This document shows positions 1,371 through 44,407 of a stretch of 64,000 bases of DNA, one piece after another; position 1 is the first letter of the stretch; the number at the start of each line of letters is the position of its first letter. The notes below the pieces were generated by a model that did not search any database, was not told where the DNA came from, and was given only the letters and a program-made list of their open reading frames with translations. The DNA comes from Amoebophrya sp. A120 (lineage: Eukaryota > Protista > Dinoflagellata), in the NCBI GenBank assembly GCA_905178155.1, contig CAJINV010000002.1, positions 12,964,480 to 13,028,479 of the forward strand, read 5' to 3'. A program made the translations under genes and the position numbers.

Positions 1371-1542
1371 CCTCACGGAAATAAAAAAGAACTCTTTTTA
1401 AATCTCACGGAAATAAAAAAGAATTATTTTTCCACTTGTTTCAGATATTTTGTAAATCTCACGGAAATCTCACGGAAATGATAAAGAATAATTCGGAGCT
1501 TCTCTGGAGCTCTTCCATACCCAGACATTTTTACATTTGATA
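1371..1542. mobile_element. Right end of a TIR introner (non-canonical intron); left end not in window
   Basis: The reverse complement of 1510-1542 (TATCAAATGTAAAAATGTCTGGGTATGGAAGAG) matches the left TIR at 30247-30279 at 30/33 nt. It is preceded by short AT-rich CTCACGGAAAT repeats, and the coding frame begins right after it. Confidence 0.8.
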
Positions 1543-4500
1543 TCTTCGGCAGCTCCTTCTCCTTGCGCTCCACTCTGAAAATGGGCAGTCTCTGCAGCGT
1601 GTTCTCACGGGCGTCGTTGGGAAGCAGCATGTCCGTTCTTGAGGCAGCTCGTTTGGGCAGCTCGCTCAGCATCCGCGCCTTCACCCGCATGGGTTCGCTG
1701 GCCTCGGTCTGCAGCCGCACGGATATCGGACTGCAGCTCTCCATCCTCGATGGGGTCTGCTTGGGAAGCTCGTTGTCGGTTCGCAACCGTGCAGCGAAGA
1801 TGCACGACCGGCTTTCGGTCTTCGATGCGCACAGCCTCGGGTCCGCCCTGAGTCTGCGATCGTTCGTGCGTCTCGGCTCGAGCCTGTCAGTGGTCAACGA
1901 CTACCGCCACTCTGGCGCATCTACGGTGACGACGGCCGCGGTGAGTGTGGGCGGAAAGACTCGCTTGGGCGATCGCTTGTCGGTCCTCGAGCAGATTGAG
2001 CTCGGTTCTTCGCTTTCCGTACGGTGTTTCGCGAAGTTCGGCAGTGCGCTGTCCATCCTGGACTTCTCGGTGCTCGGCTCCAGCCTGTCGTTGCGCGGGT
2101 ACAACAGATTTGGGTCGTCCATGTCCATCTTCACCGACACCAAGCTCGGAATGGACCAGTCGGTCATGTCGCAAATCATGGTCGGAAGCTCTCTCTCGTT
2201 GCGCAGCTTTGCCCGCAGCGGCGCCCGGATTTCTGTGGTGGACTTCCTGCACCTGGGATCGTCCATGTCGCTTCGCGGTGCGTTTGCGCGCTTAGGCGAG
2301 TGCTTGTCGGTCCTCGACTCGGTCGCGCTCGGCAGCGCTTTGTCTCTGCGCGGCTACATGCGTCTCGGCAGCTCCTACAGCACCGCCGGCGTCCCGCACA
2401 AGTCGATGGGCACGCACCTGTCGATCCTCAGCTTCGTTTCCCTTGGGTCGTCGCTTTCGCTCCGGCGGTACGCGAACTTTGGTTCCTGCTGCTCGGTGCT
2501 CGACAGCGTCTCCCTGGCCTCCTCGCTCTCTCTCCGCAATTACGCACGGGTTGGTAGCGGTTTGTCGGTGGTCGCGCCGCACTCGCGGTTGTCCTCTCGA
2601 CTTTCCGTCTTCGACTTCATGAGTGTCGGGTCCAGTTTCTCGCTGCGCAACCTCGCTCGCCTCGGTTGCGAGGTATCCATTCTCCACGCCGTCACGCTGG
2701 GCAGCTCCGTTTCGCTGCGGTCCTACGTGCGCATGGGAAGCAGTTTGAGTCTTCTCGACTTCTTCAACATGGGCAGCAGTTTGAGTTTGCGAGCCGTCGG
2801 CCGCGCCGGCCTGGGAATGTCGATTCTCGACGGGGTCTGCCTGGGCAGCTCGCTGTCGGTTCGCAGCGTCGGTCGCCTCGGCCAGAACGTTTCCATTCTC
2901 GACATGACTGTACTCGGAAGCAGTCTGAGCTTGCGCAGCGCGTCCGCCCGGATTGGCAGCGCGATGTCTGTTTTGGGCATCATGCGGAACCTGGGTAGCG
3001 TGTACCGCATGAGTGTGATCGACTTCTGCCAGCTCGGATCCAGCTTATCGATTCGACAATTCGTGCAGGCGGGCAGCCGCTCGTCGATCTGCGACTACCT
3101 GACTCTCGGCAGCTCCATTTCCGTGCGAAACTTTGCCCGCGTGGGGAGCGGCTTCTCTGTGACTGAGAGTCTGCGCATGCGCGGCGACGTGTCTCTATTG
3201 AGCTTTGCAATCCTGGGGAGCAGCTTCAGTGTCCGGTCCTTCCAGCGTATGTCGAGCACCTGCTCTGTCATTGAGTACCTGCAGCTTGGATCCTCGCTGA
3301 GCTTGCGCAGCCTCGCGCGGTTTGGCAGCAACATGAGTGCCCTGGACTTTGTCCACATCGGCAGTCTCTGCTCCCTCCGCGGGTTCGCTCGATTGGGTAG
3401 CACCTTATCGGTGCTCGGGACTCTGCGGAACCTGTGCGGCAACTCCATGTCCGTACTTGATGCCGTGTACTGTGCTAGCACTCTCAGCGTGCGCGCCAAG
3501 ACGGTCTTCGGCAGCCGGCTCTCAGTGCTGAATTGCGCGGTGCTGGGAAGCTCGCTGTCCGTCCGCTCGCACGTGACGCTTGCCCAGGCCAGCCAGGGCA
3601 TGTCAGTCCTCGACTTCGTGTCCTTCGGCAGTTCTCTCAGCCTCCGTGCGTACGGTCGCCTGGGAAGCGCGATATCCATCCTGGACTTCGCGAACACCGG
3701 TAGCTCCTACAGTTGCCGCGGCTTCGTGCGACTGAACAGCCGCTTGAGTCTGCTCGGTTTGTGCCAGAACATCGGCAGCTGCTACCGACTTTCCGTGCTC
3801 GACCAGTTCCACTTGGGCAGTTCGCTCAGTGTGCGGTCGATCACCAGGATGGGCAGCTGCATTTCGGTTCTGGACATGTCCAACTACGGCAGCGCCATGA
3901 GCTTGCGCGCGGTTGCGAGATGCGGTAGCTCCGTCTCGATTCTCACACGCATGCGGCTCGGCGGCTCCTGCTCGACGCTCGACTACGTGTGCATCGGTAG
4001 CAGCGTTTCCCTGCGGAGCTACGCACGCTGCGGGTCCGCGACCAGTATCCTCAATTTCGTGCACTGCAGCTCGTCGCTTTCCATCCGTGCGCACACCAAG
4101 CTCGGCAGTTCGCATTCGATCGTGGGCGTCATACAGAGCAGCAAAACTGTCTCCGTTCTGGACTTCCTCCTGCTCGCCTCCAGCCTGTCAGTACGAAAAT
4201 CCACTTCCTGCGGAAGTGCGTTCTCGGTTCTCGACGCGGTGCAGTTTGGCTCCAGTTTGAGTATTCGCAGCTTTGTGCGCAGCGCCTCCGCCATGTCGAT
4301 CCTGAACTTCTCGACCTGCGGCTCCGCACTGTCCATCCGCCAGTTCGTCCGCATCGGCAGCTCGTTCAGCGCGACCGGCCAGATCCAGGAACGGCTGCTC
4401 TTCGGGCAGCATGTCTCCATCCAGGACCAGACCCACTTCGGCAGCACCTTGTCGTTGCGTAACTGCGGTCGGTTCGGCTCCGCCATGTCGGTTATCAACT

Positions 4501-5762
4501 TCATCGCGCTGTCCTCGAGTCTGTCCCTCCGCGGGCACGTCCGCGTCGGGAGCACCTGCAGTGTCTTTGGCAAGGGCCGCGTCGGCTCCCTCTTCGCGGT
4601 TTCCGTTGTCGGGTTCCAGCACGTGGGCTCCAGCATGTCGCTGCGGCGGCGCGCCGAACTGGGCTCAAGGTTCTCCGTGATCGACCAACTCAACCTGGGA
4701 AGCTGCCTCTCCTTGCGCACCTACTCGCGGCTGGCCTCAGTCGCCTCGGTGATTGGGCGCACGCAGGTGGACCAACTGATTTCGGTGCTGAACTTCGGCG
4801 AATTTGGCTCCTCGGTGTCCCTGAGGCAGTTTGCGCCCGTGGGCAGTCGCGTCAGCGTCGTGGACTTTCTGTCGCTCGGCTCGTCGCTGTCCGTACGGTC
4901 GGTGTCGCGGTTCGGCAGCGCCCTGTCTGTGCTTGATGCGGCGAGCTTGAGCAGCAGCTTGTCCGTCCGCACCTATTTCCGGGCGGGCAGCGCCTTCTCC
5001 ATTCACGGTCTGCAGTTATTGAACAGCGTGAAGAAGATGAGCGTGATCGCGGCCACAACGCTGGGATCGTCGCTGTCGGTGCGCTGCTTCACGAGCTGCG
5101 CAGCCCGCATGTCGATCCTGGAGAACAGCCACTTGGGTTCTTCCCTGTCGCTCCGGCAGTACTGCCGCATTGGCAGCACCATGTCGCTGCACGGCGTCCA
5201 GTTTATCGGCAGCTGCGCGCAGACCTCCATCATGCACAAGGTCTTCCTCGCGTCAAGCATGTCGTTGCGCACCTTTGGGCGGTGCGGGAGCTTCATGAGC
5301 GTGTTGGATAACGTGCACATGGGCTCGTCGCTCTCCGTGCGCTCCCAGATGCGGTTCGGTTCGAACTTCTCGGTGCTGAACTTCGTGCAGATGGGAAGCT
5401 CCCTGTCGGTCCGCAGGATGTGCAAGCTCGGCAGCACGTCTTCCATCTGCTGCTTCGCGTCGATGGGATCGACCCTGAGTCTGCGAAGCACGGTGAAGTG
5501 CGGCTCCCGAACCTCCATCCTGAACATGGTGCACCTCGCGTCCGCTTTGTCCATCCGCAACTTTGTGCGGACCGGCAGCGCATTCTCCGTGCACGGCACC
5601 ACGCGGGTCGGCTCGCTCGTGAAGCTTTCGATCGTGCACATGTTCGAGACGGGGAGCACCTTCTCCGTTCGCGGCATGAACCGATTGGGACAAAACATGT
5701 CTGTGTTCGACTACGTCGCCTTCAGCAGCAACCTCTCCATTCGGCAGTTCGCGCGGTGCGGA
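1543..5762 (+). CDS. First visible exon of the giant repeat protein (internal exon, not the gene start)
   Basis: The repeat frame FGSSFSLRSTLKMGS starts immediately after an introner right end at 1542. The ORF track's TTG start at 1563 falls mid-repeat. Confidence 0.88.
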
Positions 5763-8700
5763 TATCCAATGCAAATATGTCTGGGTCTGCATGAGCGGCG
5801 CAAGGCAATTACTACTTTAAGCACTTTTGAACATCTACACGAAAAACTATTATCCTGTATCGCCAAAATATTTTGAAATATTTTCAAAATACGGCCAAAA
5901 TATTTTCAAAATACTGTGAAAATATTCCCAAAATATTCCCAAAAAATTTTGCAAAAACGCAGTTGTGTGCCAGCACTCATCCAGACCCAGACACTTTTGC
6001 ATTTCATAGCGGAAGCTCCATGTCAGTAGCGAACACACAGATGATTGGCGCTAGCAGACTGACGGTTCTGGACATGCTGAACATCGGCAGCTCTGTCTCG
6101 TTACGCGCTTGCTCGCGTCTGGGCTCCCGGTTCTCGGCGCTCAACTTCGTCAACCTCGGTTCGAGCCTCAGCGCACGAAACGTGATCCGGTTTGGAATGG
6201 AACTGTCCGTGCTGGATTACGTGAGCCTGGGCAGCAGCTGTTCGTTGCGCAGCTATCAACGGGCTGGCTCCATGCTGTCGATTCTCGAGATCGCGGCCTT
6301 CGGCTCGTCGCTTTCCGTGCGCCAGTTCGCGCGCGTGGGCAGCGGCTTCAGTGTGCACTCGCTCGTGAAGCAGGTGGGCAGTTGCTACAAATTGTCCATG
6401 CTCGAGCAGCTGCACATCGCGAGCAGCTTCTCTCTCCGCGACCGCATGTACCTGGGCAACAAACTGTCCGTCCTCGACTACGTGCAGTGCGGCTCCAGCA
6501 TGAGCGTCCGGCGCTTCACGCGGTTTGGCTCCGGTGTTTCGATGCTCAGCCAGACGCGCCAGAACGACCGACTCTCCGTCCTCGTTTCCGCCACGCTCGG
6601 CTCTTCCTTGAGTTTGCGTGGGGTTGCGAGGTTTGGGTCCCGACTCTCGGTACTCGACTGCTTCAACCTGGCGAGCGCCCTCTCCCTGCGGCAATACATG
6701 CGCGTCGGAAGCAGCTGCAGCACGGCCGGCCAGATTCGGTACGCGAAGAACTTCCGGTTCCACACCTCAGTGATCGACCAGCTGCAGCTGGGCAGCAGCA
6801 TGAGTGTCCGATCCTTCGTGCGCTCAGGTTCCGCTGTCTCTATTCTGGACTTTGTCGGTTTGTCGAGCGCACTGTCGCTTCGACAACACGTGCGGGCCGG
6901 CTCCGGCGTGTCCATTTTCGGGAAATTCCGGTTGGCCAATAAAGCCTCGGTGCTGGGGTACCTGCATCTCGGCTCCAGCATGTCGATGCGGTCTTTCGCC
7001 CGGATTGGCAGCATCACGTCGGTGTTGGATGCGGTCCACCTGGCATCCGCCCTTTCCATCCGCCAACTTACCCGACTCGGTAGTTCGCTCTCGGTTTCGA
7101 GTGTCACGCAGTCCGTCGGATGCCGCATGATGTCTGTTCTGGGGTACAGCAGCATGGGTAGCAGCTGCTCGCTGCGAAGCTACAGTCGGATGGGCAGTCA
7201 GTTCAGCTTGTTGTCCTTCCTGCAAACGGCGTCGTCGCTGTCGCTCCGCCAGTACCTGCGCTGCGGGTCCTCCGCGAGCATGTTCGGCCAGTTGCGCGTG
7301 AATCCCGTCGCGTCTGTGATCTCGCAGGCACATTTGGGTTCCGCGCTCTCAGTCCGACGTCACGTGAAGTTCTCCGAGGCTATGTCCGTTTTGGACTTTG
7401 TCGCGTGCGGCAGCTCACTGTCGCTCCGCAACTTCCTCCGGATCGGTAGCAACCTGAGTGTGAAGGGCTTGCAGCACTTCGGCGACGAGGGCATGTTCAG
7501 CCTGTCGGTGATTCGCATGACGCACTTGGGCTCGTCACTCTCCCTTCGCTCGTACCTGCGCATGGGCAGCAAGTTCTCCGTGCTGGACGCGACGAACGTG
7601 GGCTCGTCGGTGTCGTTGCGCCAGTATATCCGGTGCGCTTCATCGGCAAGTATGTTTGGCGCGCTGCGCGTCCCGGGCAGCCTGTCGATCATCTCCCACA
7701 CGCAATTGGGCTCCGCTCTTTCCGTTCGCGCCCACGGGCGGGCTGCCAGCAAGATGAGTCTGTTCGATTTCGTCTCCCTGGGTTCCGGCCTGTCCATCCG
7801 GACGTCGCTGCGCATCGGCTCCGCGCTGAGCTGCAGTGGTGTGTTCCGCTTCGGCTCGCTGCACACGCTCTCCTGCGGCGCCTCTGCGGTGCTGGCGCAA
7901 GACTGCAGTATCACGTGCCGATCCAACCTGGTGAACGGTTTGTCTGTCTTCGGGTACCTGCACGCCGCCAGCACGCTCTCCATGCGAGGTCCGGCCAGCT
8001 TCGGGAACCGGCTCTCCGTGATGGAGGAAGCCCACATGGGTTCCGCCATGTCCATCCGGAGCATGACGCGCCTGGGTAGCTGCATGTCTATGGCGGGCGG
8101 TATCGTGATTCCGAAAGAATTCTCCGTGACCATGGCGTGCTTTATGGGTTCTTCACTTTCCATGCGGAGCTTCGTGCGTATGCAGCGGGTCAGTTTCCTG
8201 GACTTCATGCACCTCGGTAGCGCCATTTCCGTCAGAAGCGCTATGCGTCTCGCTTCCGGCATCAGCTGCTACGGGCGCCCGAACGACAAACTCTTCAAGG
8301 GCGGCTCCACGGGATTATCGTTGCTCACCTGCGCGCACCTCGGTAGCTCCATGTCGCTGCGGCAGACCGCAAAAGCGAAGTTGCAGTCCACCCTCTCCGT
8401 GTTGGACTTTGTGCACCTCTCGTCTGCGGTCTCCGTCCGCCAGTTCTTCCGGGTTGGCAGCACGGTCTCTGTTCAACAGCTCGTGCGGTCGTCCGAGAAG
8501 CTTTCGGTGCTGGGCATGACCATGCTCGGTTCCTCACTCTCGGTGCGTAGCTTGGTCCGCGTTGGGTCCTCGCGTCCGCGCGGCAACTGCTCGGTCCTCG
8601 ACTGCCTGAACCTCGGGAGCAGTCTCTCTCTGCGAACCACGGTGGAACTCGGTAGCATGGCATCCGTGCTGAACTTCGCGTTCCTCGGCAGTACCATCTC

Positions 8701-11700
8701 GCTCCGCCATCACATTCGCATGGGATCCGCCTTCTCTTGCTGCGCGGCTCGCATCTACCTGGGCAGCTCGATCTCGATGTTGGACAGCCACCACGTTGGC
8801 AGCTCGCTGTCGTTGCGGAACTTCGTTCGCATGGGGAGTAACATCTCGATCGTGGGCGCCTCTGCGCGCAGTGGGACCAACTTGAGTGTGCTGAATTACG
8901 TCAATCTGTCGTCCTCCTTCTCCGTCCGGTCCTTCGCACGCTTCGGCAGCAATGCCTCCGTGCACATCTACGCCGATATGGGTTCGACCCTGTCGCTCCG
9001 GAACATGCTTCGCATGGGCAGCACGTTCAGTTGTTTCACTTCTGGTGGAAAGCAGCTGACCGGGCTGGGTGGTAGTTTGAGCGTGATGGACGCAACCATT
9101 CTCGGTTCCGCACTGTCATTGCGCGGGCAGCACACGAACCTCGGCATGGACCTCTCCCTTTTAACGTTCGCGAACTTCGGATCCACCCTGTCTTTGCGCC
9201 ACTCGCTCCGGACGGGTATGAAGGGCAGTGTGATGGATTTCATGCACCTCGGGTCGATCCTGTCTCTGCGAAACTACTGCCGCGTTGGGTCCAGCTTCTC
9301 CGCGTGCAGGCAAGGAACACTTGCAGCTGAGTTCTCGATTTTGAACCAAGTCAGACTGGGCTCCACCCTTTCCGTTCGACAGATCGGTAGATTCGGTGCG
9401 GCCTTGTCCGTACTGGATGCAGTCAGCCTTGCGAGTTGCTTCTCCGTTCGCTCGACGATGAATCAGCGGGGCGAGAAAATGGCCTTCTCCGTGACCAATC
9501 TGGTGAACATGGGTAGCAGTCTGTCCGTACGACAATTCGTCCGCGTGGGCAGCAGCTGCAGCGTCCGCGGACTGTTCCAGACACACATGGGTTCCGTGTT
9601 CAATCTGTCCGTTATCCAGCAGGCCGAGCTCGGGTCCTCTTTGAGTATCCGCAACGTGTTCCGGGCTGGATCCGCGACTTCGGTGATGCAATGGGCGGCC
9701 ATTGGCTCCGTCCTCTCGCTCCGATCGTGCGCTCGTCTCGGCAAAAACACCAGCGTGCTCGACTACGTCAGCCTCGGATCCGTGCTGTCCGTCCGCGCTA
9801 TGGTGCGCACCGGCTCGAACATGAGTTGCTTCGGCCTGTTCCGCTGCAGCTCGCTTGGCACGCTTTCCGTGGTGCATATGTCGCGTGTGGCGAGCTCCCT
9901 AAGTCTCCGTAACCACGTGCGTTTAGGCGACCGGTGCTCGGTGTTTGACCTGATGATGCTGGGCAGCAGCATGTCTATGCGGCAGTTCTCGCGGCTGGGC
10001 AGTTCCATGACAGTTACCGGCATGACCACTATTGGGTCTCTCCAGAGTTACAGTGTGATTGCCTTCACGCACCTCGGTAGCAGCCTATCCGTTCGCACAC
10101 ACAGCCGGCTGGGCAAATCTCTTTCGGTGCTCGACGCGGCCTCCCTCGGGTCGACCGTGTCGCTCCGCAGCTTCGCTCGAGCGGGCAGCATCATCAGCTG
10201 CATCGACTTTATCAACATGGCCAGCAGCATCAGCGTCAGAACTTTCAATCGCGTAGGAAGTGCGCTGTCCGTCTTCAGCAGCACGAAGGCCGGCGCCACG
10301 CTGAGTATGATCGAAACGATCTACCTCGGGTCCTCCATCTCGGTCCGCTCCACGGCGCGACTGGGCTCTGCGCTGTCGTCGATGAACTTCCTGGTCACCG
10401 GCTCGTCCCTGAGTCTCAGGTCCTTCGTGCGCGCTGGCAGCAGCATGTCGGTTTGCGGGGTGAGCTGGCTGTCTTCGATCCACAAACTCTCCGTCGTGGA
10501 CCAGCTTACGATCACCTCCACGCTGTCTGTGCGCAGCCACGCACGCCTGGGATCCGCCTGCTCCGTTCTGAACTTCGTGCACCTGGGCTCGGCAGTTTCC
10601 CTCCGGGGCTACAGTCGCTGCGGCTCGGGCGTCTCGCTCCACGGTACAGGGAAGTGCGGCGCGAAGCTCTCCGTCCTCGATTGCCTCAATCTGGGGAGCT
10701 CGCTCTCAGTTCGCGGGAGGCGTGGAGTCGTGGGCAACTTCTCGCTGTTGAACTTCGTGAATGCCGGCTCCAGCTTGTCTCTGCGATCCTACGCTCGAGT
10801 CGTCGAGCTGTCCGTGATGTCTTTCACGCATCTCGGGTCCAGCGTGTCGTTGCGCCGGGCCGTGCCCCTCGGGTCCGCGCTGTCCGTGTTGAACTTCGTC
10901 CAACTCGGCAGCTGTCTGAGTACACGCACCTACACCCGTCTCGGCAGTGTCTTCTCCGTTTCGAGTAAATTCAACGCCGGAGAAACCCTGAGCGTTTTGC
11001 AATCAGTTCATCTCGGCTCCAGCATGTCCTGCCGAAACTACATGCGTTTGGGCGCGAACTTGAGTATCTTCGACTTTGTCAATTGCGGCAGCAGTCTGTC
11101 CCTGCGAAACTTCGCTCGTGTTGGATCCAACATGACGGTGATTGGCTTCACCAGTGTGGGAAGCGCGCTGCGAGTGTCCATCCTGGAGTTTACCCACCTC
11201 GCGTCCTCGTGCTCCCTGCGCAGCTTCAGTCGCATGCAGGACTCGTGCAGCATACTGGACTATTCGCAGTACGCCAGTTCCCTGTCCCTCCGGGCCGCGG
11301 CCCGCTTCGGCAGTTCCCTCTCGTTGCATAAGTCCCTCCGGTTGAACAGCCATTTAAGCGTCGTGGACGCGGTGGCCCTCGGTAGTTCTCTCTCTCTTCG
11401 TGCCAGCTGGAAGGCGTCCAGCCGACTTTCCGTCTTGGACTGCTTCCACTGCGGGAGCGCGTTGTCGTTGCGATCGGTCATGCAGTGCGGCATGAGCGCC
11501 AGTGTGCTGGATTACGTGAACCTCGGGTCCACGCTGTCCCTCCGCGGATGCGCTCGGCACACGGGCATGTACTCGCTCCTCGACATGTACGCCTCCGGCT
11601 CCTCCATCTCTTGTAGGAGCTTCGGGCGGTTCGGGTCCAACCTGAGTGTGAAGGGAACGGTCACGCTGGCGTCGATCATCGCGGTTTCTGTAATCGGCTC

Positions 11701-26700: not shown

Positions 26701-29700
26701 AATCCTGAGTCAACTGCAGGTCGGCTCAGCTCTGTCTGTCCGGTCCGTCTCACGGTTCGGCTCTCGCATGTCTGTCCTTGATTGCCTAGCCCTTGGCTCC
26801 GCCATCTCGGTGCGCGACTTTGCGCGGGTGCAGGGAGCTGTTTCAGCACAGAGCGACCTTCGCGGCGTGACGCAACTGAGTGTGCAACAACTCGGACAGA
26901 TCGGAAGTACCTTGTCCGTTCGCACGTACGCACGGTTCGGCTCTCGCATGTCCGTCCTCGACTGCTTGGCCATCGGCAGCACGTTCTCGGTTCGCGCGAT
27001 GGCGCGGTGCGGCAGCGGTGCCTCGATCGTCGGTAGCACAGAACTCAGCCAGAAGATCTCCGTGCTGAACTTCTCGAATCTGGGTTCGTCCCTCTCCATT
27101 CGAAGCACCAGCAGGCTCGGGTCAAAACTGTCTACGGTGGATTGCCTGGCGCTAGCAAGCTCTTTGTCTGTTCGTGCGATTGTTCGACTGGGCGGAGACC
27201 TTTCCACGAGTGGGGCGCAAATCCTGCAAGCGAACGTGTCGCTGCTGAGCCAGACAACGGTTGGCAGCACCCTCTCAATCCGTGCGGCAACGAGATGTGG
27301 CAGCCGGGTCTCAGTGCTCGACTTGTTCCAGCTCGGTTCGTCGTTATCCGTCCGAAATTGCGTCCGCATGGGTTCCGCCCTCTCGGTGACCGGTCGCACC
27401 GCGGTTGGCTCGCTGTACAGCACTTCGGTCGTGCAGTGCACCGCGCTTGGCAGCGCCCTGTCGATCCGCTCGATCGCTCGAGCCGGCTCCCGATGCAGTG
27501 TGGTCGACATGTTCGCGCTCAGCTCCAGCATCTCCCTGCGGCATTTCGCGAAACTCGGGTCCTCGCTCAGCATCGCTGGTTCAAAGGTCATCTTCGGCGC
27601 AGCACGCCTGTCGGTTCTGGATAGCGTCACTCTCGGGTCCAGCCTGAGTCTGCGAAACAAGGGCCGCGTCGGCGATCGCGTATCCGTTCTGGACAAGCTG
27701 ATGTTGGGGAGTTCGCTGTCAGTGCGAGCCTCCGCTCGCTTCGGCAGCTCTCTGTCTGTGAACGGACGCCAACTAGTTGGCGGAAACTGCAGCGTCCTGC
27801 AGTTCACGGCACTCAGCAGCTCATTGTCCATTCGGGCGGTCATCCGGGCCGGTTCGCGCCTTTCGATCCTGGATCTGTGCAACCTCGGATCGTCCATCTC
27901 CCTGCGCGCTGCGGTCCGCATTGGCTCGGGGCTTTCGGCGATCGGCTACACGGCTGTCGGAAGCGTGACCAAACTGTCGCTGGTGCAGCACCTCACCCTG
28001 GGCTCCAGCCTCTCGATAAGAAGTACAGGCACCGGCGGAGGCCGAGCCTCCGTCTTGAACTATTTGCAGCTCGGCTCCAGTGTGTCGGTTCGAAACTACG
28101 CGAAGATGGGCTCCAGTATGTCTGTCGTCGGTGGCGGAAAAGTGGGCAAGCACCTCAGCATTCTGAACTTCACGAACTTCGGCAGCAGCATGTCGTTCCG
28201 CAACCATTGCCGCGTGGGAGGCACCGCGTCGATTCTCAGCTTCATTCAGCTGGGATCCTCCCTGTCAGTGCGACAGTACTTGCGCAGCGGCAGCTCCTGC
28301 AGCATCCTGGGGAGCTGTCGCACCGGCCTGCAGGCCTCCGTATTGAGCTGCGCCGCTCTCGGCAGTGCGCTCTCGGTCCGGAACGCCATGCGGTTGGGTA
28401 GTCGCGTTTCTGTTTTGGACTGCTTGAACCTGGGCTCTGCACTTTCCGTACGCGGCTTCGTGCGATTGGGCAGCAGCTGCAGCACGGTCGGCGTGATGGA
28501 GTTCGGCTCCCTGTACCGTTGCAGCGTCCACGACTTCACGAAATTGGCAAGCACGTTGTCCATCCGCAGCTTCGTCCGGCTCGGCTCCCGGGCCTCGGTG
28601 CTCGATTTCATGACGCTCGGCTCGGGCATGAGCATTCGAACCATGGGCCGAGTGGGATCCGGCGTCTCGGTCTGCGGCGCGCAAGCTCGGGTGCAGTCGC
28701 ACCTGTCGGTGTTAGACCTCACGAACTTGAGCAGCACGCTGTCTCTCCGCGGCGCTTCGCGGTGCGGAAAACAGCTCACGATCCTGCAATTCGCCAATCT
28801 CGCAAGTGCGCTTTCGGTGCGGTCGACTGCAAGAATCGGCTCAAAGACGTCGGTTCTCGACCTGCTTGCGCTTGGCAGCGCGCTGAGTGTACGTGGCATT
28901 ACCAGATGCGGCAGTACTTTGTCGGTCGTGGAACCAACGCGCCTTTCCAGCAAGTTCAGCGCGCTGAACCTGGCACAGCTGGGCAGCTCGCTTTCTTTAC
29001 GCGGCCTCGGCAAGAGTGGCAGCAGATGCTCTGTACTCGATTTCATGTCGCTGGGCAGCGCGGTCTCCGTTCGGTCCTTCGTGCGGTACGGTTCCGCTTT
29101 GTCCATCACCAGCGGCGATCGCATCGGGGCCATCTCGCTGTACACGCGCATCAACTGCGGCAGTGCGCTTTCCGTGCGGGGGGTTACCCGTCTGGGCTCT
29201 CGCGCGTCTGTGCTAAACTGCCTGCACCTGGGGAGCTCCCTCTCTCTCCGCGGCTTCATCAGGTCGGCCTCGGCCACCAGCGCCAAGGGCTTCCTCGCCG
29301 TCGGCAGCATGGGCCGGACGTCCGTGATCGACTTCGTCAACGTCAGCAGCTCGCTCTCAGTCCGCGCGGCCTCGCGCCTGGGAGAACGGTTATCCGTCCT
29401 GGACTTCATGAACCTCGGGTCGTCGGTTTCGCTCCGCGCGGTGGGACGGCTCGGCTCGGCGCTCAGCATTTCTGCAACGCAGACGCGAATCTGCGGCATG
29501 GTATCGGTGACAGAGCAACTGCACAGCGGCTCCGCCCTCAGCCTACGATCATTCGCACGCACGGGCTCTCGCGCCTCTGTTCTGTCCTACGCGCAGTTGG
29601 GATCCGCGCTCTCGATTCGGGCCGCCGGCAGGTGTGGTAGCAAGCTTTCGATCCTCGACCTCTTCAACTGCGGGAGTAGCCTGTCGGTTCGAGGCTTCGC

Positions 29701-32700
29701 GAGACTCGGCAGCAACCTCTCGTGCTTCATCGGTACGCACGCGACCATACCGAATTGGAACAGGAGAACCGATAAAGCCGGAGGAAAGCTATCCGTCGTC
29801 GGATGCACGAACTTCGGTTCGGGCGTGTCTCTGCGACACAAGTGCAAGTTCGGCGGCAGACTTTCCGTGCTCGACTTCACAATCATCGGGTCGTCCCTGA
29901 GCATGCGATCGAAAACCCAGACCGGCAAATGCATCAGCGTGCTCGACTCCGCCTGCTTCGGGTCTGGGCTTTCGCTCCGGTCCTTCGTGCGCGCGCCGAA
30001 GACCGCGTCCTGCCTCGCGTTTGCGACGCTCGGTAGCGCTTTGTCCGTCCGCAGTAAGGTTCGCACCAGCAGCAGGTGCTCCGTGCTCGATTTCGCGAAC
30101 TTCGGATCCACGCTGAGTGTGCGCGGAGCCTGCCGGTTCGGCAGCCGGGCATCGGTGTTGGATTGCCTCAACCTCGGCAGCAGCATCTCGATGCGGGCGT
30201 ACAGCCGGCTGGGTAGCAGCGTCTCCATTGCCTCCAGCGTCATCTTTATCAAATGCAAAAGTGTCTGGGTCTGGAAGAGTGCATGCTTGCCTGGCCTGAC
30301 TCTTAAATCTGTCATGCACGTTACCCACGTTACCCAGAAGGCTCGGCTGAAGTTGGGTTTTAGGATTTTGGCTTCCAAAAATCGACAGGGGTCTGGGCTT
30401 CCAAAATCCTAAAACCCAGTTTGTCATGCAGAAAAATAGGCAACACCTAGGAGCCCAAAAATTTGTCATGCTGTGCCAACACAACTTGTGGCCTCCTCAT
30501 GATAGTACAAGTACGCCACCCAGCATCACAAATTTATTCCAGACCCAGACCTATTCGCAGTTCATAATCTTCAACGGCGCCTCGTACCCGTTGTCAGTCG
30601 TGCAGCAAATCGACCTCGGCAGCACGTTGAGCGTGCGGGGCGCCACCCGGTGCGGTAGCAAACTGTCCGTCCTCGATTGCCTCCACCTTGGCAGCGGCAT
30701 GAGCATCCGCTCCTTCCTCCGCTGCGGTTCTAACGTCTCCGTTGCGGGGGCGCTCGTGTTCGGCTCGATCACACACATCAGCCTGCTGAACCACGTGAAC
30801 CTGGGAAGCACTCTTTCGGTGCGCACCCACTTCCGGTGCGGCAGCCGCGCCTCCGTTCTCGACTACCTCCACGTGGGCGCAAGTCTGTCGGTCCGTAACC
30901 GAGCGCAGATCGGCACCAACACCTCAGTGCTGGAATTGGTGAATCTCGGCAGTTCGGTCTCCCTGCGCGTCTGTACCAAGCTCGGCTCCAGGCTGTCCGT
31001 GCTGAACTTCGTGCACTGTGGGAGCTCGTTGTCCGTCCGTGGAAGGACCACCAGTGGCGCGACCGGACGAATGTCCGTGTTCAACATGTTCGCTCTGGGC
31101 AGCAGCATCTCTGTGCGCGCCGCGACTCGACTGGGCTCCAACCTTTCCCTCGCCGGAAAACCGCTCTTGGGCGACGGCGCGTCGGTGTTGCAGCGAATGA
31201 ACCTCGGATCGGCCCTGAGCCTGAGAAGCACCAGTAGGTTGGGTAGCTGCGCTTCCATCCTGAGCTTCGCCATGCTCGGCTCCGCCTTGTCCATTCGAAA
31301 CTTCGCCCGGTGCGGCAGCTCGCTCTCCGTGCATTCCGTGTGCAAGGCGCTGGGCTCCGTCTCCAAGGTGTCGGTGGTAAACTTCCAGGCTATGGGCAGC
31401 TCGCTTTCCGTCCGCAGTACCGTCCGTCTCGGGTCCAAATGCTCGGTGTGCGACCACTTTGCGCTCGGAAGTACCCTCAGCCTCCGATCCTTCGTGCGGG
31501 CAGATGACCGCGTTTCCGTACTCGGGTATCTGCACCTCGGCAGCTCGCTGTCACTGCGTGCGGCGAGCCGGTTCGGCTCCGGCATGAGCGTTTATGGCGA
31601 AGTGCCGCTCGGCGACAAGTTCTCCGTGCTCAACTTCCAGGGCTTGGGCAGCAGCCTGTCTATCCGCGGCCGGCTGACCAACCACATGCGTGTCAGTGTG
31701 CTCGACTGCCTCACCCTGGGCAGCAGCGTCTCGCTGCGCGCGGTCAGCCGCCTGGGCTCCGGTCTTTCGGTGAAAGGACTCGTGCGCGGGTGCATCGGCA
31801 GCAACCCGTTCATCGGGCTGAGCCACAGCAAGTCCGTGATTGAGCACGTGCACCTCGGCAGCAGTTTATCCGTCCGCGGGTACCTGCGGGCCGGTGAGAA
31901 GCTCAGCGTGCTGGGCTTCGTGCACTGCGCGTCCACCCTGTCCGTGCGGGGCATCAACAAGTTTGGCAGCCGCCTCAGCCTGTTCGACACCCTGGCTCTC
32001 GGCTCCGCGATCAGCCTCCGCCACTTCATGCGGCTGGGCTCCGCGTTGTCCGTCGAAACCGCCGATTTGGATTTGTCCGGCAGCCAGTACACCAAGATCC
32101 GGAAGGACAGCGTCAGCGGCTACCTCTCGGTGGCGCAGCAGGCCTTCATCGGCAGTTCGTTCTCCCTGCGGGGCTTCGCGAAGATGGGCAGTCGGTTGTC
32201 GACGCTCGACTTCATGCTCCTGGGCAGCAGCGTGTCCATCCGAAGCTTCAGCCGCCTGGGTAGTTCGCTCTCAATGCACGCGGGATTGTGCGGCTTCGGT
32301 TCCAGCATTGACAACGGGTCATCGAAAGGATTGTCCATCACGCAGCACATGAACGTCGCGAGTACGCTTTCGCTGCGGGGCGTTGCCTACATGGGTTCCC
32401 GCCACAGCGTGCTCAACTACCTCAACCTCGGGTCCGCTCTGTCGGTCCGAGGTGCGGGGCGGTTCGGCTCGCGGGCCAGCGTGCTCGACTTCCTGATGTG
32501 CGGGTCCACAGTGTCGACTCGTGCCTTTGTGCGGACCGGCAGTTCCTGTTCGGTGGTGGGCAGGGGGCGGCTCCAAGGCGAGCTCTCGCTCCTAGACATG
32601 GTCACGGTCGGCAGCTCGCTCTCCATGCGCAGCTACCTGCGGTTAGAAGGAAAGCTGTCGCTGTACAACACCGGTCGCGTCGGTGGCCGCGCTTCCCTGA

Positions 32701-35700
32701 TGGACATCGCCATGTTGGGAAGTATGCTGTCCCTGCGGTCCATGACCCGGCTTGGCTCCTCGACGTCGCTCTTCAGCAATTGCCGGGTCGCCGGCAACGT
32801 GAGCATTCTCTCGTTCCTCAGCACGGGCAGCTCGCTGTCCGTCCGGGGAGCGATCCGGGCCGGCTCTCGAGCATCCGTGTTCGACTGCCTCGCGCTGGGG
32901 TCGAGCATGTCGCTCAGATCCTTCGTTCGCCTCAACAGCGGCCTGTCTGTGGCGGGACGATTCGGTATTTCTTTTGAAATCATGGTGCTTGTTAATGCCC
33001 TTTTGATACAAAGTAGTGAGCAACCACCTGTGTGATGTTCTGATTTTTCTCCAACAATACCAAAAGGCGTAAAACGTCATAGGTCGCGAGCGCATGATGA
33101 AACTTTTCCCAAAACGTACACAACAGATCTGCCAAGCGTCTCCTCGTTGTCGGTGGTGCAGTGCACGAGCCTCGGGTCCTCCTTGAGCGTCCGAGGATTC
33201 ACCAGGGTATGATATTTTCTATACCATTTTGATTTTTGATGCAATTGGTTTATTTCGAAACCTGAAGACTCAGGCTGAATCTGGCAATAGACGTGATGGT
33301 GATCAAGATCTTCACTATTACGACGATGGACTTTTTTTTCTGGCGGCGGCCACCAGGACTTTTTTTGCTCCGTGGTGTGTGACCACCAGGACTCTTTTTG
33401 CTCCGTGGTGTGTGGCCACCAGGACTTCTCTTGCTGGTGGTGACCACCAGGACTTTTTTTGCTCCGTGGTGACCGCCAGGACTTTTTTTGCTCCGTGGTG
33501 TGTGACCACCAGGACTCTTTTTGCTCCGTGGTGTGTGGCCACCAGGACTTCTCTTGCTGGTGGTGACCACCAGGACTTTTTTTGCTCCGTGGTGTGTGAC
33601 CACCAGGACTTTTTTTTCTGGCGGCGGCCACCAGGACTTCTCTTGCTTTGTGGTGGCCACCAGGACTTCTCTTGCTTTGTGGTGGCCAACAGGACTTCTC
33701 TTGCTGGTGGTGACCACCAGGACTTTTTTTGCTCCGTGGTGTGTGACCACCAGGACTTCTCTTGCTTGAGCGTCCGAGGATTCACAAGGGTATCACGACT
33801 TTTTTTTTGAATTTGATGCAATTGGTTTAAGTAAGTATTTCGAAACCTGAGCCTACTAGCAATAGACGTGATGGCGATCAAGATCTTCACCATTACGACG
33901 ATGTGATAGCAAAACCATCAATGATCAGCATCAGATGTGAAGATAGTGAAACTGCATGCGTTATTCCTCCCTTGACATTCAAAAAAACCAACTATACCAG
34001 CTTTCGTCAAGGGCCAGCGTGCTGGATTACATGCACATTGGTAGCTGCTTGAGCGTCCGGGGCCAAGTTTTGTCCGGTACCAAGCTGCACCGTTCCGCGT
34101 CCGTGATGGACTTCTTGACTCTGGGCAACGCCATGTCGATCCGTTGCTTCACCCACAAGGGCGGCCCGCCACGCGTCTCAGTCTTCGACTTTGTCACGTT
34201 GGGCTCCGCTCTGTCGGTCCGCAGCAGAATCCGGTGCGGATCGTCCTGCTCGGTAACATGATAAAAACGTTACTTTGCTTGATTTTTTTCCTTTTGTTCG
34301 GTTTTATTCTTGCATTACATCAGTTTCGATGTCCTTGCGCATCTCATATCAGCAGAGAATGATTACACGATGAAATGTTAGTTCATCTTACCTCAACCTT
34401 CTACGCCAAAAAACTTTCATCATCCTCAGGTTCTGGATATGGCGAGATTCGGCTCGAGCCTATCGCTCCGGCAAAATGCGCGATTAGGAAGCCGGGTTTC
34501 AGTCATTAACTTCCTAAACCTGGGCTCGTGCCTATCGGTGCGCGCACCTGGCAAGGTACGGTGTAGCGGCAAAGCGTCGGTCCTGAACTTCGTGGCCCTG
34601 GGATCCGGTCTTTCTGTGCGTAGCTTCTCACGACTCGGCAGCACGCTGTCGGCGGCCGGAAACCTCGCAACCGGCAAGTTCTCCGTCTCGCAACAAATGA
34701 CTGCCGGATCCACGCTCTCAGTTCGTGGATTCTCCAGATTTGGTATGATCTACAGTTTCACATAACTTTTCTTTTTCGGTACTTCTACTTCTCGCAGCAC
34801 TTCTAAAGTAAGTAGATTTAAAATTCCAAGAACATGAACTTGTGGGCGAAGATGAAAAAGCCTCCAGTAAGAAATCCGCAACGATTCATCGGAGAAATCA
34901 AACACTACAGGTTCTAGAGCCAGTGTTCTGGACATGTTCCAGCTGGGATCGCAACTCAGCGTACGGGGCTTCGTGCGGTGCAATTCGGCACTGAGCGCCG
35001 TCGGCTTGGTTGCGGCGGGCTCGATTTCCAAGCTGTCCGTCGCGCAGATGACGCACATCGGATCGTACTTTTTTACCATCTGTTTCTTTTTTTTCCTCAT
35101 GATGATGTTGCAAAAAAATAAGACTCTAACCCACCGGGTGCTGTCATGCCTTAAATTCTAAATTCATGTTTGCCATCTTTCCCATAACAACCATTCACAG
35201 GTCCTTGTCGATCCGCGGTGCGATGCGGTGTGGCAGTCGCGCTTCCCTTTTGGATTGTCTGCATCTGGGCTCCACGGTCTCGTTGCGCGCCGTCTGCCGG
35301 CTCGGTAGCAGCGCGTCGGCGTATGGACGATCAAGTGTGCAAAGCACGTGCAGTGTGATGGATTCGACCTTCCTGGGATCCGGAATCAGTCTGCGTTCCT
35401 TCGCCACGATTAGCAGCCGATTCTCCGTGATTGACATGCTCCGAATCGGTATACAAACTGTTTCTTCAACATGTTCTTTGTTTCAAAGACCTTTCCTCGA
35501 TTCTCCGCTCCAATAGCGATCTTGGTGAGTTAGTTCTCTTCGAGCCATTTCCATTTACGATTGCCACTGTATATCAATGCATCCCATCAAAAAACCGCAG
35601 GTTCGTCGGTGTCCCTCCGTGCATTCGGCCGCCTTAGCTCATCGGTGAGTGTGTACCAAGCGCTGCAGTCCGGCGGCAATTGCAGTGTGCTGAAATTTGC

Positions 35701-38347
35701 GACTCTGGCGTCTACTTTGTCCATCCGAGCCGCGGCGCGGCTGGGCAGCCGCGCTAGCGTGCTCGACATGCTCTCCTTGGGTAGCAGCATGTCCGTACGA
35801 GCGGCATCTCGTCTGGGCAGCAGCCTGTCGGTGAACACCCTCCGTTGTACGCAGGTCGGCCAGTGCTCGGTGGTGCAGTACGTGCACTGCGGTTCGTCCC
35901 TGTCGACAAGAAGCATCATGCGGTTCGGCTCTCGAATGAGCCTGTTCGACACCATCGCGCTGGGCTCCGGATTGAGCATCCGCGCATCCACGAGGTAAGT
36001 GCGTGCTTTGAACTTTTAGTGAAAGAAAATGTAAAAGAGCATCGAATGAATCAGAGTGAACCATTCGCATCAGATTGACACCGAGTGGTAGTGTTCTTGT
36101 TGATGGCGCAACTAACTGGAGTTGAGTTTAATGTGATACTAGTATGCGCAACTACTTCTAAGATTCATTTTCTTCTATCACATGAACTACAGGTTGGGCT
36201 CCGCGCTCTCGGTCCACGGAACGGGTGTCGTGGGTGGCGTCAGCATCATCGACCGCGTTGCGTTCGGCTCCTGCCTGAGTCTGCGCGGCATTGCAAGAAT
36301 GGGCTCAAGAGGCTCGGTGATCAACTTCCTGTCCCTCGGCTCGAGCATGTCCGTCCGGTCGTACACGCGACTCGGAAGCTCGCTGTCCATCGGTGCGGCA
36401 CCTGCAGCTGTCGGAGGTAATATTCTTGTTGAAGCCCTCTACTATTTCGCACTGATGCGCATTTTTCTCCTCGTCGAACGACAATGATTTTTCTTCTCCT
36501 TTTTAGTTTGTACGACCCGATAACGCTGACAAAAAAATGACTCACAGGTAAACTCTCCTTGACTTCTGCCCTGCACGTTGGCTCGTCCTTGTCGTTGCGT
36601 GGCAGAGTCAGAATGGGCAGCAGATGCAGCATTCTCAGTCACGTCTCGTTGGGCAGCACCCTATCGGTATTTGATTTTTTCCTTTAGTTCTTTCGCAGTT
36701 GCATCAGCTCGATCACCTTCTGCTGTTGTGCCTGAAATTTATTTTTAGAGAAAACACGAATCGATGATCCACTTTGTTTTCGTGAAAAAACGCAAAATCT
36801 TTTTGTCGCAAATTCCATAACAGCTCCGGACGTTTGGACGAGGACGGATCGGTGATGCGATGTCGATCCTGGACTTCGCAAGCATCGGCAGTGCGCTCTC
36901 CATTCGCAGCTTCTTGCGACTCGGCAGCGCCTTGTCTGTGAAAGGCACCATGCGCACGGACAGCACCTCAGGCACCGCTCGGGTCGTCAGCATCGACGGC
37001 AACGAGATCAAGGCTAATACCGCACTGATGACGGCCAACAACGGTTTAACGGGCACCTCCGGGTTCTCGACGGTTGCAACAGGCGACGAACCATCACTGC
37101 TCTTCAGCCTAACGAGCAACACCGCAATGAGTATAGAGAATTTGATTCATGATTTTCTTTTTGACGTACTGCTGAATATGTCGTCTTTGTCTTTCACCAC
37201 CGAAACTTGAGAAATACGACCAGCTTCTGTTCACAAAAACCATGAACCCATGTTCACAAAAACCATGAACCTCTTCAGGTATGGAATACGATATCGGCAA
37301 CACAAATGCGGTCTTTGGTCACTTGACTGGAACGTGGACCTTCGATAGCGGAAGTATCACCATGTCAGACCGACGCGTGAAGACCGACATTGCACCGCTA
37401 ATGCGCGAACTGATGCAATTGTCACAACAGGTACAAACTCGAAATAGCTGCTTTTTCTTTCACGACTCAAATCGACTGGCGCACTTCGTTTTCGCTTCTT
37501 TCCTACTTACGTTGATGTCATAGGATTGGTGTAGTTGCATTTGCAAATCCAAATGCTGAAGATAGACAATGGATTAGCGAACTATGTTTGAGTGATCTTT
37601 ACGTATCTATCCATACAAAAACGCAAAACACAGTCTCACGCCTCCGGAGCCAGTGACGTTGAGCAGTACAAGAGCGTGAACGCCACCAGCGGCGACCTCG
37701 CCACACTGAACGTGATTAACCAGCTGAGGCCGGTTAGCTACCACTACAAGGCGGCCATGGAGAGTAAGTACAGCCGATTCGGTTTTGTCGCCCAGGAGGT
37801 GCAGGAGGTGCTCCCCGCGCTGGTGGGCACGACGCCCTCGGGCTACAAGGTCCTGAACCTGAAGGACCTGATCTCGGTGCTCACCCTGGGTCTGCAGTCC
37901 CTGGACCGCGTTACGGCGGAAATGGAGGTCGCAATCGACGAGCTCAACGCCAAGGTCGACTACCACGAGGAGGTTTTGACCACCAGAATTTCCGCGGCCG
38001 AAGAAGAACTCTTTGGCGAACTCATTCACCGGCTGCTCCAAGAGGAACAGGTACAATGTTGATATATGCTCTGCTTCTACTAGAAAAGTGAACTATGCCC
38101 GCGAGAGTTGTACGGAAAAATGACAGAATCCGGCCCTTGTTTTTGCTAACCTGTCTTGCATAATACCGATTCAGTTTCTTTGCCAGAAAATGCAATCATC
38201 CCGAAACACACCACGCCACAGATTGAAATCCTGCCGGACCCTGCGATTCGCAAGATCTTGGGTAACGAAACGGCGGAGTGGTATTTCAATGCCTCGGCGA
38301 CGGATTTACGAAATCCGGACCGGCCAACAGCAGCCCTGACTCCATAA
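1543..38347 (+). CDS. Giant (>=~11,200 aa, 5'-incomplete) 12-residue-repeat fibre-like protein with C-terminal Peptidase S74/ICA autocleavage-chaperone domain; multi-exon
   Basis: Manually inferred exons: 1543-5762, 6014-30246, 30572-32964, 33127-33206, 34001-34252, 34430-34742, 34911-35064, 35201-35448, 35601-35994, 36193-36416, 36548-36666, 36824-37130, 37279-37430, 37634-38050, 38222-38347. They sum to 33,632 nt (2 nt partial codon + 11,210 codons including the stop). Junctions keep the frame, and within the repeat region the repeat register (e.g. QFARCG|SSMSV, SSVIF|NGASY, GFTR|LSSRASVLDY, RFG|SRASVLD). No N-terminus lies in the window. Confidence 0.88.
5763..6008. mobile_element. 246-bp TIR introner with 5-bp direct repeat GCGGA (non-canonical intron)
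   Basis: Ends are TATCCAATGCAAATATGTCTGGGTCTGCATGAG ... CTCATCCAGACCCAGACACTTTTGCATTTCATA. GCGGA lies at 5758-5762 and 6009-6013. Removing 251 nt exactly joins the two ORF frames. No GT-AG or GC-AG pair exists in any sliding position of the direct repeat. Confidence 0.9.
6014..30246 (+). CDS. 24.2-kb single exon (~8,080 aa of 12-residue repeats)
   Basis: Stop-free, GC-rich, continuous LGSSLS(L/V)R / SVLDF repeats, bounded on both sides by TIR introners. Confidence 0.93.
30247..30566. mobile_element. 320-bp TIR introner with 5-bp direct repeat ATCTT (non-canonical intron)
   Basis: Ends are TATCAAATGCAAAAGTGTCTGGGTCTGGAA ... TTCCAGACCCAGACCTATTCGCAGTTCATA. ATCTT lies at 30242-30246 and 30567-30571. 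Removing 325 nt restores the frame. Confidence 0.9.
30572..32964 (+). CDS. Third visible exon of the giant repeat protein
   Basis: The repeat frame resumes after the ATCTT direct repeat and ends at the GTATTT donor at 32965. Confidence 0.9.
33127..37130 (+). CDS. Nine short exons carrying the last repeats and the non-repeat neck (TDSTSGTARVVSIDGNEIKANT...)
   Basis: GC-rich repeat-coding blocks alternate with AT-rich GTA...CAG introns, and the phases are compatible at every junction. Confidence 0.85.
33328..33764. repeat. Intronic minisatellite, ~14 variant units of ~29-32 bp (core CCACCAGGACTT)
   Basis: Units such as CCACCAGGACTTTTTTTGCTCCGTGGTGTGTGA and CCACCAGGACTTCTCTTGCTGGTGGTGA alternate inside intron 33207-34000. 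Confidence 0.92.
33765..33903 (+). repeat. Diverged duplicate of the exon-end/intron-start segment 33182-33328
   Basis: CTTGAGCGTCCGAGGATTCAC(C/A)AGGGTAT ... TTTGATGCAATTGGTTTA ... GCAATAGACGTGATGG.GATCAAGATCTTCAC.ATTACGACGATG occurs on both sides of the minisatellite. Confidence 0.88.
37279..38050 (+). CDS. Peptidase S74 / intramolecular chaperone autocleavage (ICA) domain plus coiled coil, two exons
   Basis: Motifs ITM-SDRRVKTDIAPL (Ser codon 37365, Lys codon 37380), INQLRPVSYHYK, RFGFVAQEVQEVLPALV and LNLKDLISVLTLGLQSL followed by a heptad-like helix. Recognised by eye as the motif order of endosialidase/tail-fibre chaperones and the MYRF ICA domain. Confidence 0.85.
38222..38347 (+). CDS. 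Probable terminal exon (IEILPDPAIRK...AALTP*)
   Basis: Phase-0 donor at 38051. The A/C-rich acceptor CCACGCCACAG ending at 38221 matches the other acceptors. Alternative AGs at 38174 and 38186 give a different open frame and cannot be excluded. Confidence 0.55.
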   Translation: MEILPDPAIRKILGNETAEWYFNASATDLRNPDRPTAALTP

Positions 38348-44212: not shown

Positions 44213-44307
44213 TGGGCGGGCTTCTTTGTTTGGGCCAGCCTGCTTCCTCGCGCGCGCGCTTGGGCGCACCGGCAAGCTGTTGAAGCCCCGCAAAAATTCA
44301 GAAGCGG

Positions 44308-44407
44308 NNNNNNNNNNNNNNNNNNNNNNNNNNNNNNNNNNNNNNNNNNNNNNNNNNNNNNNNNNNNNNNNNNNNNNNNNNNNNNNNNNNNNNNNNNNNN
44401 NNNNNNN
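44308..44407. other. Assembly gap (100 N) inside the satellite
   Basis: Run of 100 N with satellite sequence on both sides; true array length unknown. Confidence 0.99.

Follow-up and report, generated by a model that had tools for sequence, protein, structure and literature searches.

A giant dodecapeptide-repeat gene of Amoebophrya sp. A120 with a C-terminal Peptidase_S74/ICA chaperone very probably encodes a TLP-12-type fibre

What kind of product is encoded by a single gene whose repeats fill more than 30 kb of DNA? The question is raised by a 64,000-nt stretch of the Amoebophrya sp. A120 genome (GenBank assembly GCA_905178155.1, contig CAJINV010000002.1, positions 12,964,480 to 13,028,479), the whole of which is called the window here, with the gene part studied lying at 1543-38347 on the + strand. 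Three long + strand open reading frames (ORFs; 1485-5876, 5831-30412 and 30351-33035, of 1,463, 8,193 and 894 aa from stop to stop) consist of repeats rich in Ser, Leu, Gly, Val and Arg. A preliminary description made from the sequence had proposed that these ORFs and 12 short exons join into a frame of ~11,200 aa, capped by a self-cleaving chaperone of the phage tail fibre type and folding as a trimeric beta-helix. Our analysis indicates that the gene very probably makes a fibre of the kind named TLP-12, a trimer that would be glycosylated and exported.

Gene structure and expression

Fifteen exons between 1543 and 38347, placed by three-frame translation and RNA joints, splice into one stop-free frame of 11,209 aa ending at 38347, in good agreement with the length first proposed. 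GT-AG borders are found in 12 introns of this model, and the G+C content at third codon positions (GC3) of the coding sequence is 0.79. The features are, in order:

1-1337, no strand: terminal part of a dispersed repeat of transposon-like kind, bearing a subterminal array of 109 bp and an internal hairpin; non-protein, inside the intron upstream of exon 1
1516-1542, +: 3' arm (inverted repeat) of an introner-like intron, the 5' arm being outside the window; shows 83% complementarity with the corresponding 5' arm in intron 1, and aligns with the ends of introns 1 and 2
1543-5762, +: first exon of the window (exon 1, aa 1-1406), made of dodecapeptide repeats; opens within a repeat, without start codon or signal peptide
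5763-6013, +: intron 1, introner-like, 251 nt, with 33-nt inverted arms and a 5-nt direct repeat; splicing predicted from sequence
6014-30246, +: exon 2, 24,233 nt, aa 1407-9483; dodecapeptide repeats without interruption
30247-30571, +: intron 2, 325 nt, of the same introner family as intron 1; splicing predicted likewise
30572-32964, +: exon 3, aa 9484-10281, repeats; under an RNA contig from 31773 on
33127-33206, 34001-34252, 34430-34742, 34911-35064, 35201-35448, 35601-35994, 36193-36416 and 36548-36666, +: exons 4-11, repeats, with GT-AG introns; RNA joints and a loose end
36824-37130, +: exon 12, final repeats (to about aa 10920), then linker to the chaperone
37279-37430, +: exon 13, conserved G-x-W strand and SDRRVK; predicted cut before Ser11008
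37634-38050, +: exon 14, body of the Peptidase_S74/ICA domain (Pfam) and long C-terminal helix (predicted coiled coil)
38051-38221, +: last intron; joint seen in 275 X12 reads, 2 X11 reads and an X4 contig
38222-38347, +: exon 15, coding part of 41 aa and stop codon
38348-39500, +: long transcribed 3' untranslated region

Four of 13 RNA sequencing runs (X4, as contigs; X5, from an estuary; X11; and X12) were aligned to 33770-39500. All ten introns within this region were seen as GT-AG joints in X12 (83-378 reads each), and the same joints were found for nine of the ten in X4 contigs, four in X5 and one in X11, with depth near zero in the introns, so that the signal is RNA. Introns 3 and 4 are supported in another way: 114 reads share a loose end at 34000 that corresponds to where exon 4 ends, and the X4 contig starting at 31773 (1,845 nt) matches exons 3-6 base for base only when both introns are taken out. 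RNA support extends in total to 12 of the 14 introns and links exon 3 to the 3' end, by overlapping short evidence rather than one molecule. X11 holds 7 reads and X12 holds 11,391 (494 and 461 million letters respectively, under the same species label), a difference that comes without a control gene and may reflect stage or library make-up.

Spliced pieces also occur in the X5 estuary metatranscriptome at an identity of at least 99% (six of seven contigs), and the gene is therefore expressed in a wild population. An A-tail seen at 39339 falls on a genomic A run and may reflect internal priming. Within intron 4 (33207-34000) the exon 4 end and the intron start recur as a 76% copy (33182-33328 against 33765-33903), with a 33-bp array between the two.

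Introns 1 and 2 share inverted arms and bear 5-nt direct repeats at their exon borders, the arrangement by which Amoebophrya introners are defined (a terminal inverted repeat and a direct repeat of 3-5 nt; PMC7789003). Each interrupts a repeat unit and has a length that is not a multiple of three, with removal restoring the frame. In-frame GT-AG alternatives are present at 5756-6009 for intron 1 and 30239-30560 for intron 2, each differing by 3 nt in length from the intron that the direct repeats define. The alternative AG of intron 2 lies at a mismatch within the inverted arm, as if the element had acquired a canonical acceptor. The RNA evidence covers the other 12 introns, and we infer from the sequence that exons 1 and 2 (9,483 aa) are joined to the chaperone exons through introns 1 and 2.

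The 3' arm of a third introner (1516-1542) precedes exon 1, which opens inside a repeat unit, and the gene therefore continues upstream beyond the window, as the preliminary description had held; within the window, no repeat-coding frame was found upstream of 1543 in six frames. Copies of the dispersed repeat at 1-1337, with 83-91% identity, end at the same base with different flanks in all three loci compared (L003-L005). At L005 the repeat precedes the same introner end, followed by coding-like DNA, and is nested in an introner as in the window. The hairpin of the dispersed repeat lies at 938-1136 (z -4.65). A motif resembling the start of U1 small nuclear RNA (939-962 and 1137-1160) was rejected, with no Rfam U1 match and the motif lying inside the end of the dispersed repeat.

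The dodecapeptide repeat

The identity autocorrelation of the protein is 0.254, 0.285 and 0.218 at lags 12, 24 and 36, compared with 0.10 in shuffled sequence, and strict GSxxS motifs number 552 against a shuffled mean of 51 and maximum of 72 (200 shuffles). Profile segmentation gives 882 twelve-residue units covering 97% of the first 10,925 aa, close to the ~900 degenerate units originally estimated, with 33 Pro and 6 Trp in this part, matching the near absence of these residues reported before. Glycine is found at position 1 in 73% of units and Ser/Thr at position 2 in 76%, with hydrophobic residues at positions 4, 6 and 12; Ser/Thr at position 5 reaches about 100%, a value that is partly by construction because the profile was seeded on GSxxS. 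Three unit types are distinguished (377 A, 394 B and 111 C), of which A and B mostly alternate to give a 24-residue period, and 765 of the 881 unit junctions are flush. The whole coding sequence contains no repeated 30-mer, and the array is therefore old, and not an assembly collapse, loop or artefact. A match of exon 2 to CART (E=5e-5, under the cut-off) was taken as compositional, and no Pfam hexapeptide match was obtained in the three repeat stretches scanned.

The C-terminal chaperone

Exon 14 matches Pfam Peptidase_S74 (PF13884; E=3.5e-11, 43.6 bits against a cut-off of 22), confirming the C-terminal domain recognised earlier from its signature. The motif SDRRVK lies at 37365-37382 in exon 13 and places Ser11008 and Lys11013 five residues apart; Ser is kept in 45 and Lys in 45 of the 47 alignment rows of the family, and the proposed Ser-Lys dyad is thereby upheld. 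This pair is needed for cleavage in MyRF and endoNF, with S587/K592 of MyRF at the same spacing, and ICA domains work as trimers, placed below triple helices (PMC8326128). The 47-row family profile matches the S16 long tail fibre chaperone 6f45 (E=1.3e-9), 8jov (2e-6), MyRF 7dc3 (0.007) and the T5 fibre 8hqz (0.018). A fold model of the closest relative, P0001, aligns with the MyRF ICA domain (Z 7.3, root mean square deviation 2.2, 92 residues aligned) and with the endosialidase ICA domain 3gw6 (Z 6.7, root mean square deviation 4.0, 88 aligned), with a Foldseek search of the same model against the PDB returning no matches at E up to 0.001. In P0001 a helix of 61 residues (321-381) is predicted with a predicted local distance difference test (pLDDT) score above 90, and the C-terminal helix of the window protein shows a modest heptad pattern, with 12 of 21 a/d positions hydrophobic.

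The chaperone shares the S-D-x-R-x-K cleavage motif, the GF-x-A-x-E motif and the C-terminal helix with the ICA/Peptidase_S74 proteins of phages (K1F endosialidase 3gw6, T5 L-shaped fibre 4uw8/8hqz, S16 fibre 6f45). In contrast to these, the window gene is eukaryotic and split by introns, its stalk is at least 11,000 aa long and likely glycosylated, and the insert after the Lys is longer and variable; in relatives, 33-151 aa lie between this Lys and the next motif. With MYRF/MrfA (7dc3; PMC8326128) it shares a eukaryotic ICA domain and the Ser-Lys pair, and this is the best fold match of the chaperone part. MYRF frees a transcription factor from the ER membrane, whereas the window protein lacks a DNA-binding domain, and past its ICA domain the hydropathy peaks at 0.99, with no transmembrane segment.

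Comparison with TLP-12 and the fibre model

The CryoSeek preprint (bioRxiv 10.1101/2025.09.30.679562) describes TLP-12, solved by cryo-electron microscopy (cryo-EM) from pond water, as a C3 trimer forming a triple beta-helix of GSxxSx7 repeats. Three chains are interwoven, with two short strands per dodecapeptide and a rise of 9.6 Å, and glycans of ~7 and ~11 sugars sit on positions 2 and 5. As candidates for its sequence the preprint names Amoebophrya proteins of ~20,000 aa with a C-terminal ICA domain, such as A0A8J1ZHD7 (19,853 aa, 1,263 GSxxSx7 repeats), and counts ~150 candidates in six alveolate species or strains, including the free-living Polarella, none of them characterised according to its authors. 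The fibre is accordingly not of an undescribed kind, giant Amoebophrya GSxxSx7 proteins ending in an ICA domain being already in print.

The window gene and TLP-12 are alike in the G1-S2-S5 dodecapeptide, C-terminal ICA domain and alveolate source, and probably also in giant length, which would be at least 11,209 aa here, if introns 1 and 2 are spliced, against about 20,000 aa in Amoebophrya. Compared with the TLP-12 candidates, the window holds 11,209 aa with the 5' part outside, G1 and S2 stand at the frequencies given above instead of being invariant, and the units fall into A, B and C types with a 24-residue super-period. The first symmetry search for TLP-12 gave 19.4 Å, twice the final rise, which would agree with the A/B period of 24 residues found here. 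On its sequence, the window gene has every sequence feature named in the preprint and fits the TLP-12 family, and it may be one of the listed candidates. No TLP-12 entry appeared in the PDB/structure and sequence-profile comparisons, which does not exclude one. A literature search, made mostly without subscription journals, found the CryoSeek preprint alone to describe the family, and nothing that assigns it to an organelle.

By analogy with the TLP-12 structure, the trimeric beta-helix proposed earlier remains the favoured fold. The N-terminus beyond the window would comprise a signal peptide and a small head domain, as in Perkinsus relatives, and given such a signal peptide the chain would enter the endoplasmic reticulum (ER), with exons 1 and 2 spliced on through the two introner-like introns. 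From the established biochemistry of ICA domains, three C-termini would meet via the coiled coil, the chaperone would nucleate the triple beta-helix, and Ser11008/Lys11013 would then cut the chaperone off. Each repeat would contribute two short strands, a rise of 0.96 nm and O-glycans on Ser 2 and 5, making these serines likely glycan attachment sites and not just the turn residues for which they were first taken. At this rise the 882 units measure 847 nm, a minimum with the 5' end outside the window. The rise of 0.96 nm per 12 residues lies at the top of the range assumed in the earlier calculation (~0.48 nm per 6-12 residues, giving 0.45-0.9 micrometre). The product would be a three-chain beta-helix of at least 850 nm, sugar-coated and exported, most likely as a surface hair.

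Several points weigh against this model. The trimer, glycans and cleavage of the window protein would all be transferred from other proteins, and the TLP-12 sequence itself was assigned by motif rather than identified. In the AlphaFold monomer of P0001 the repeats reach a pLDDT of no more than about 50-69 and look like single-chain solenoids, with short strands every six residues (pLDDT about 60), and a 240-aa piece of exon 2 folded from its single sequence gave an unusable model (pLDDT 39). The repeat is also less regular than that of TLP-12: 116 of the 881 unit junctions hold 1-12 extra residues, and B units have G1 in 62% and S2 in 55% of cases, whereas the preprint calls the Gly invariant; the near-constant position 5 is in part a product of the seeding. 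The signal peptide is suggested by relatives, judged by eye and hydropathy, and the join of exons 1 and 2 to exon 3 is predicted from sequence.

The last of these points bears on the possibility that exons 1 and 2 are a separate gene or an unspliced relic, with a protein of ~1,700 aa (exons 3-15) alone bearing the chaperone. In its favour, the RNA evidence reaches back as far as 31773, downstream of introns 1 and 2, and 618 scored candidates included no relative with a length of 4,442-14,135 aa. We consider it very unlikely, since both introns carry introner repeats, split a repeat unit and restore the frame, with in-frame GT-AG sites as well, and exon 2 stays open for 24 kb, with the GC3 of 0.79 holding over the coding sequence as a whole; furthermore, the published family member of 19,853 aa falls outside the length range searched.

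It is similarly improbable that each chain folds alone as a beta-solenoid, either an LpxA-type hexapeptide helix or a two-sided roll, with three packed side by side, so that the fibre would have between a third and half of the length. Weak sequence matches to LpxA/LpxD (E 0.012-0.057) count in favour of this arrangement and against the triple helix, some JGI relatives are auto-named LpxA, and the monomer model is like pentapeptide and other solenoids (Z 5-7.7). Z scores under 8 are, however, common for repeats, and the 18-residue coil period of LpxA-type left-handed beta-helices is missing from the protein, with an autocorrelation of 0.09 at lag 18, below the shuffled value, as opposed to 0.25-0.29 at lags 12 and 24. 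Additionally, ICA domains sit below triple helices, and the GSxxSx7 fibre solved in the preprint is a triple helix.

Relatives in alveolates and giant viruses

A repeat query returned 782 representatives at E up to 0.001; among the best 150 of these, at least two A motifs are present in 103, and in 37 the motif at the start of the chaperone is present as well, with repeats and chaperone in one frame, an arrangement found in P0241 of Amoebophrya A25. An alignment search gave 93 matches among 7,998 scored, 72 of them with PF13884. Most relatives appear to be 3' fragments, since 82 of the 85 with repeats and chaperone begin within the repeats. The organisms named among 30 relatives looked up are Perkinsus olseni, Apocalathium hangoei, Dinoflagellata sp. 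MGD, Biecheleria cincta and Amoebophrya A25 (five clusters), the survey of homologues suggested by the preliminary description thus reaching both dinoflagellates and Perkinsus. The closest named chaperone region is from Amoebophrya A25 (46% over 199 aa); taken with the introner-type introns of the window gene, this points to an Amoebophrya-like, and hence alveolate, source. An exact 27-nt probe from exon 1 found no metagenome contigs.

The Perkinsus olseni proteins have a hydrophobic start resembling a signal peptide (by eye; 10-residue hydropathy 3.1-3.3) and a pre-repeat head domain that they have in common with P0138, P0114, P0096 and P0035 (E-values for a 243-protein set); such a start and domain were seen in at least three further relatives. 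An Atlas search with the Perkinsus head domain gave scores all under 0.9. Two gene models of Amoebophrya A25, P0002 and P0241, end in the same chaperone and differ by nine in locus number, which suggests a tandem copy or split annotation. Five open frames of 1,160-1,780 aa (P0008, P0021, P0026, P0051 and P0073; ENA contigs for the two looked up) carry a decayed, proline-rich repeat (8-10%) in which the S5 register is lost, and are possibly pseudogene relics or a diverged sub-family.

Weaker relatives on giant-virus bins have an L-S-V dodecamer without G1, and the top Atlas matches (0.95-0.96) are viral clusters. The P0120 family of giant viruses (Nucleocytoviricota; loci L001 and L002), P0012 and P0150 share the 12-residue period with L4-S5-V6, the conservation of L, S and V being 97, 100 and 95 in P0120 and 86, 98 and 59 in P0012, and a C-terminal S74 domain was found in two of the three dodecapeptide viral-like proteins scanned (P0012 and P0150). 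Unlike the window gene, the giant-virus-type proteins have G1 in 0-10% of units, mostly lack S2 and have no introns; P0012 and P0150 are putative viral proteins, and an origin shared with the window gene is a possibility. On L001 and L002 the L-S-V dodecamer genes stand in tandem, beside a neighbour that we take, from its sequence, to be asparagine-synthetase-like.

Other features of the window

Downstream of the gene, GC-rich tandem arrays of 358 bp and 231 bp surround a scaffold gap (44308-44407) at 40665-45400. A 486-aa open frame on the + strand at 46953-48413 has no Pfam match above chance, and nothing was found by Pfam in the 13 other window frames scanned.

Possible role

For the role of the fibre, a flagellar hair filament is plausible, if short of probable, with an extrusome thread and some other surface or released glycofibril each rather less likely. 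Members of the family occur in perkinsids, in parasites and in dinoflagellates that live freely, a distribution that speaks for a surface structure common to these groups. The invasion filament among the roles first suggested is weakened, in so far as it would be specific to parasites, by the free-living relatives. Amoebophrya spores bear both flagellar hairs and trichocysts (10.1101/2025.04.10.648098), and hair-like material has been described in the nuclear envelope lumen of Psammosa, that is, in the secretory path (PMC3377698).

That the same fibre is an extrusome thread (trichocyst or mucocyst) or a host-attachment tether, and not a flagellar hair, is possible but doubtful. Trichocysts are built in the sporont, are thought to aid attachment (PMC9478091) and are seen in infective spores, and the 7 and 11,391 reads of two runs of similar size are what a stage-limited product would give. 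This difference, which comes without a control gene, would fit hairs equally, however, and the relatives in free-living Apocalathium, Biecheleria and MGD make a purely invasive role less likely without speaking against extrusomes. Returning to the flagellar hair, we suggest only tentatively, as a rather unlikely proposal in its full form, that the product of these genes is the filament of the flagellar hairs in dinoflagellates and perkinsids, with one chain spanning the hair and repeat number acting as a length ruler, and with a repeat-plus-chaperone design shared with, and perhaps taken from, giant-virus fibres, to which G1 and S2 were added as glycan sites.

The family has been described together with its likely structure, with no organelle or function assigned to it so far. 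An expressed, mapped gene from a cultured-type organism provides a handle on these, with unique insert peptides and the chaperone predicted to be cleaved off as targets for proteomics and immuno-electron microscopy. As a material, a glycofibre of ~0.85 micrometre from one gene would be remarkable, and it might be a source of the fibrous glycoprotein found in the sea; if the fibre proves to be a flagellar hair or an extrusome thread, a structure observed for a long time in an important group of plankton would gain its protein.

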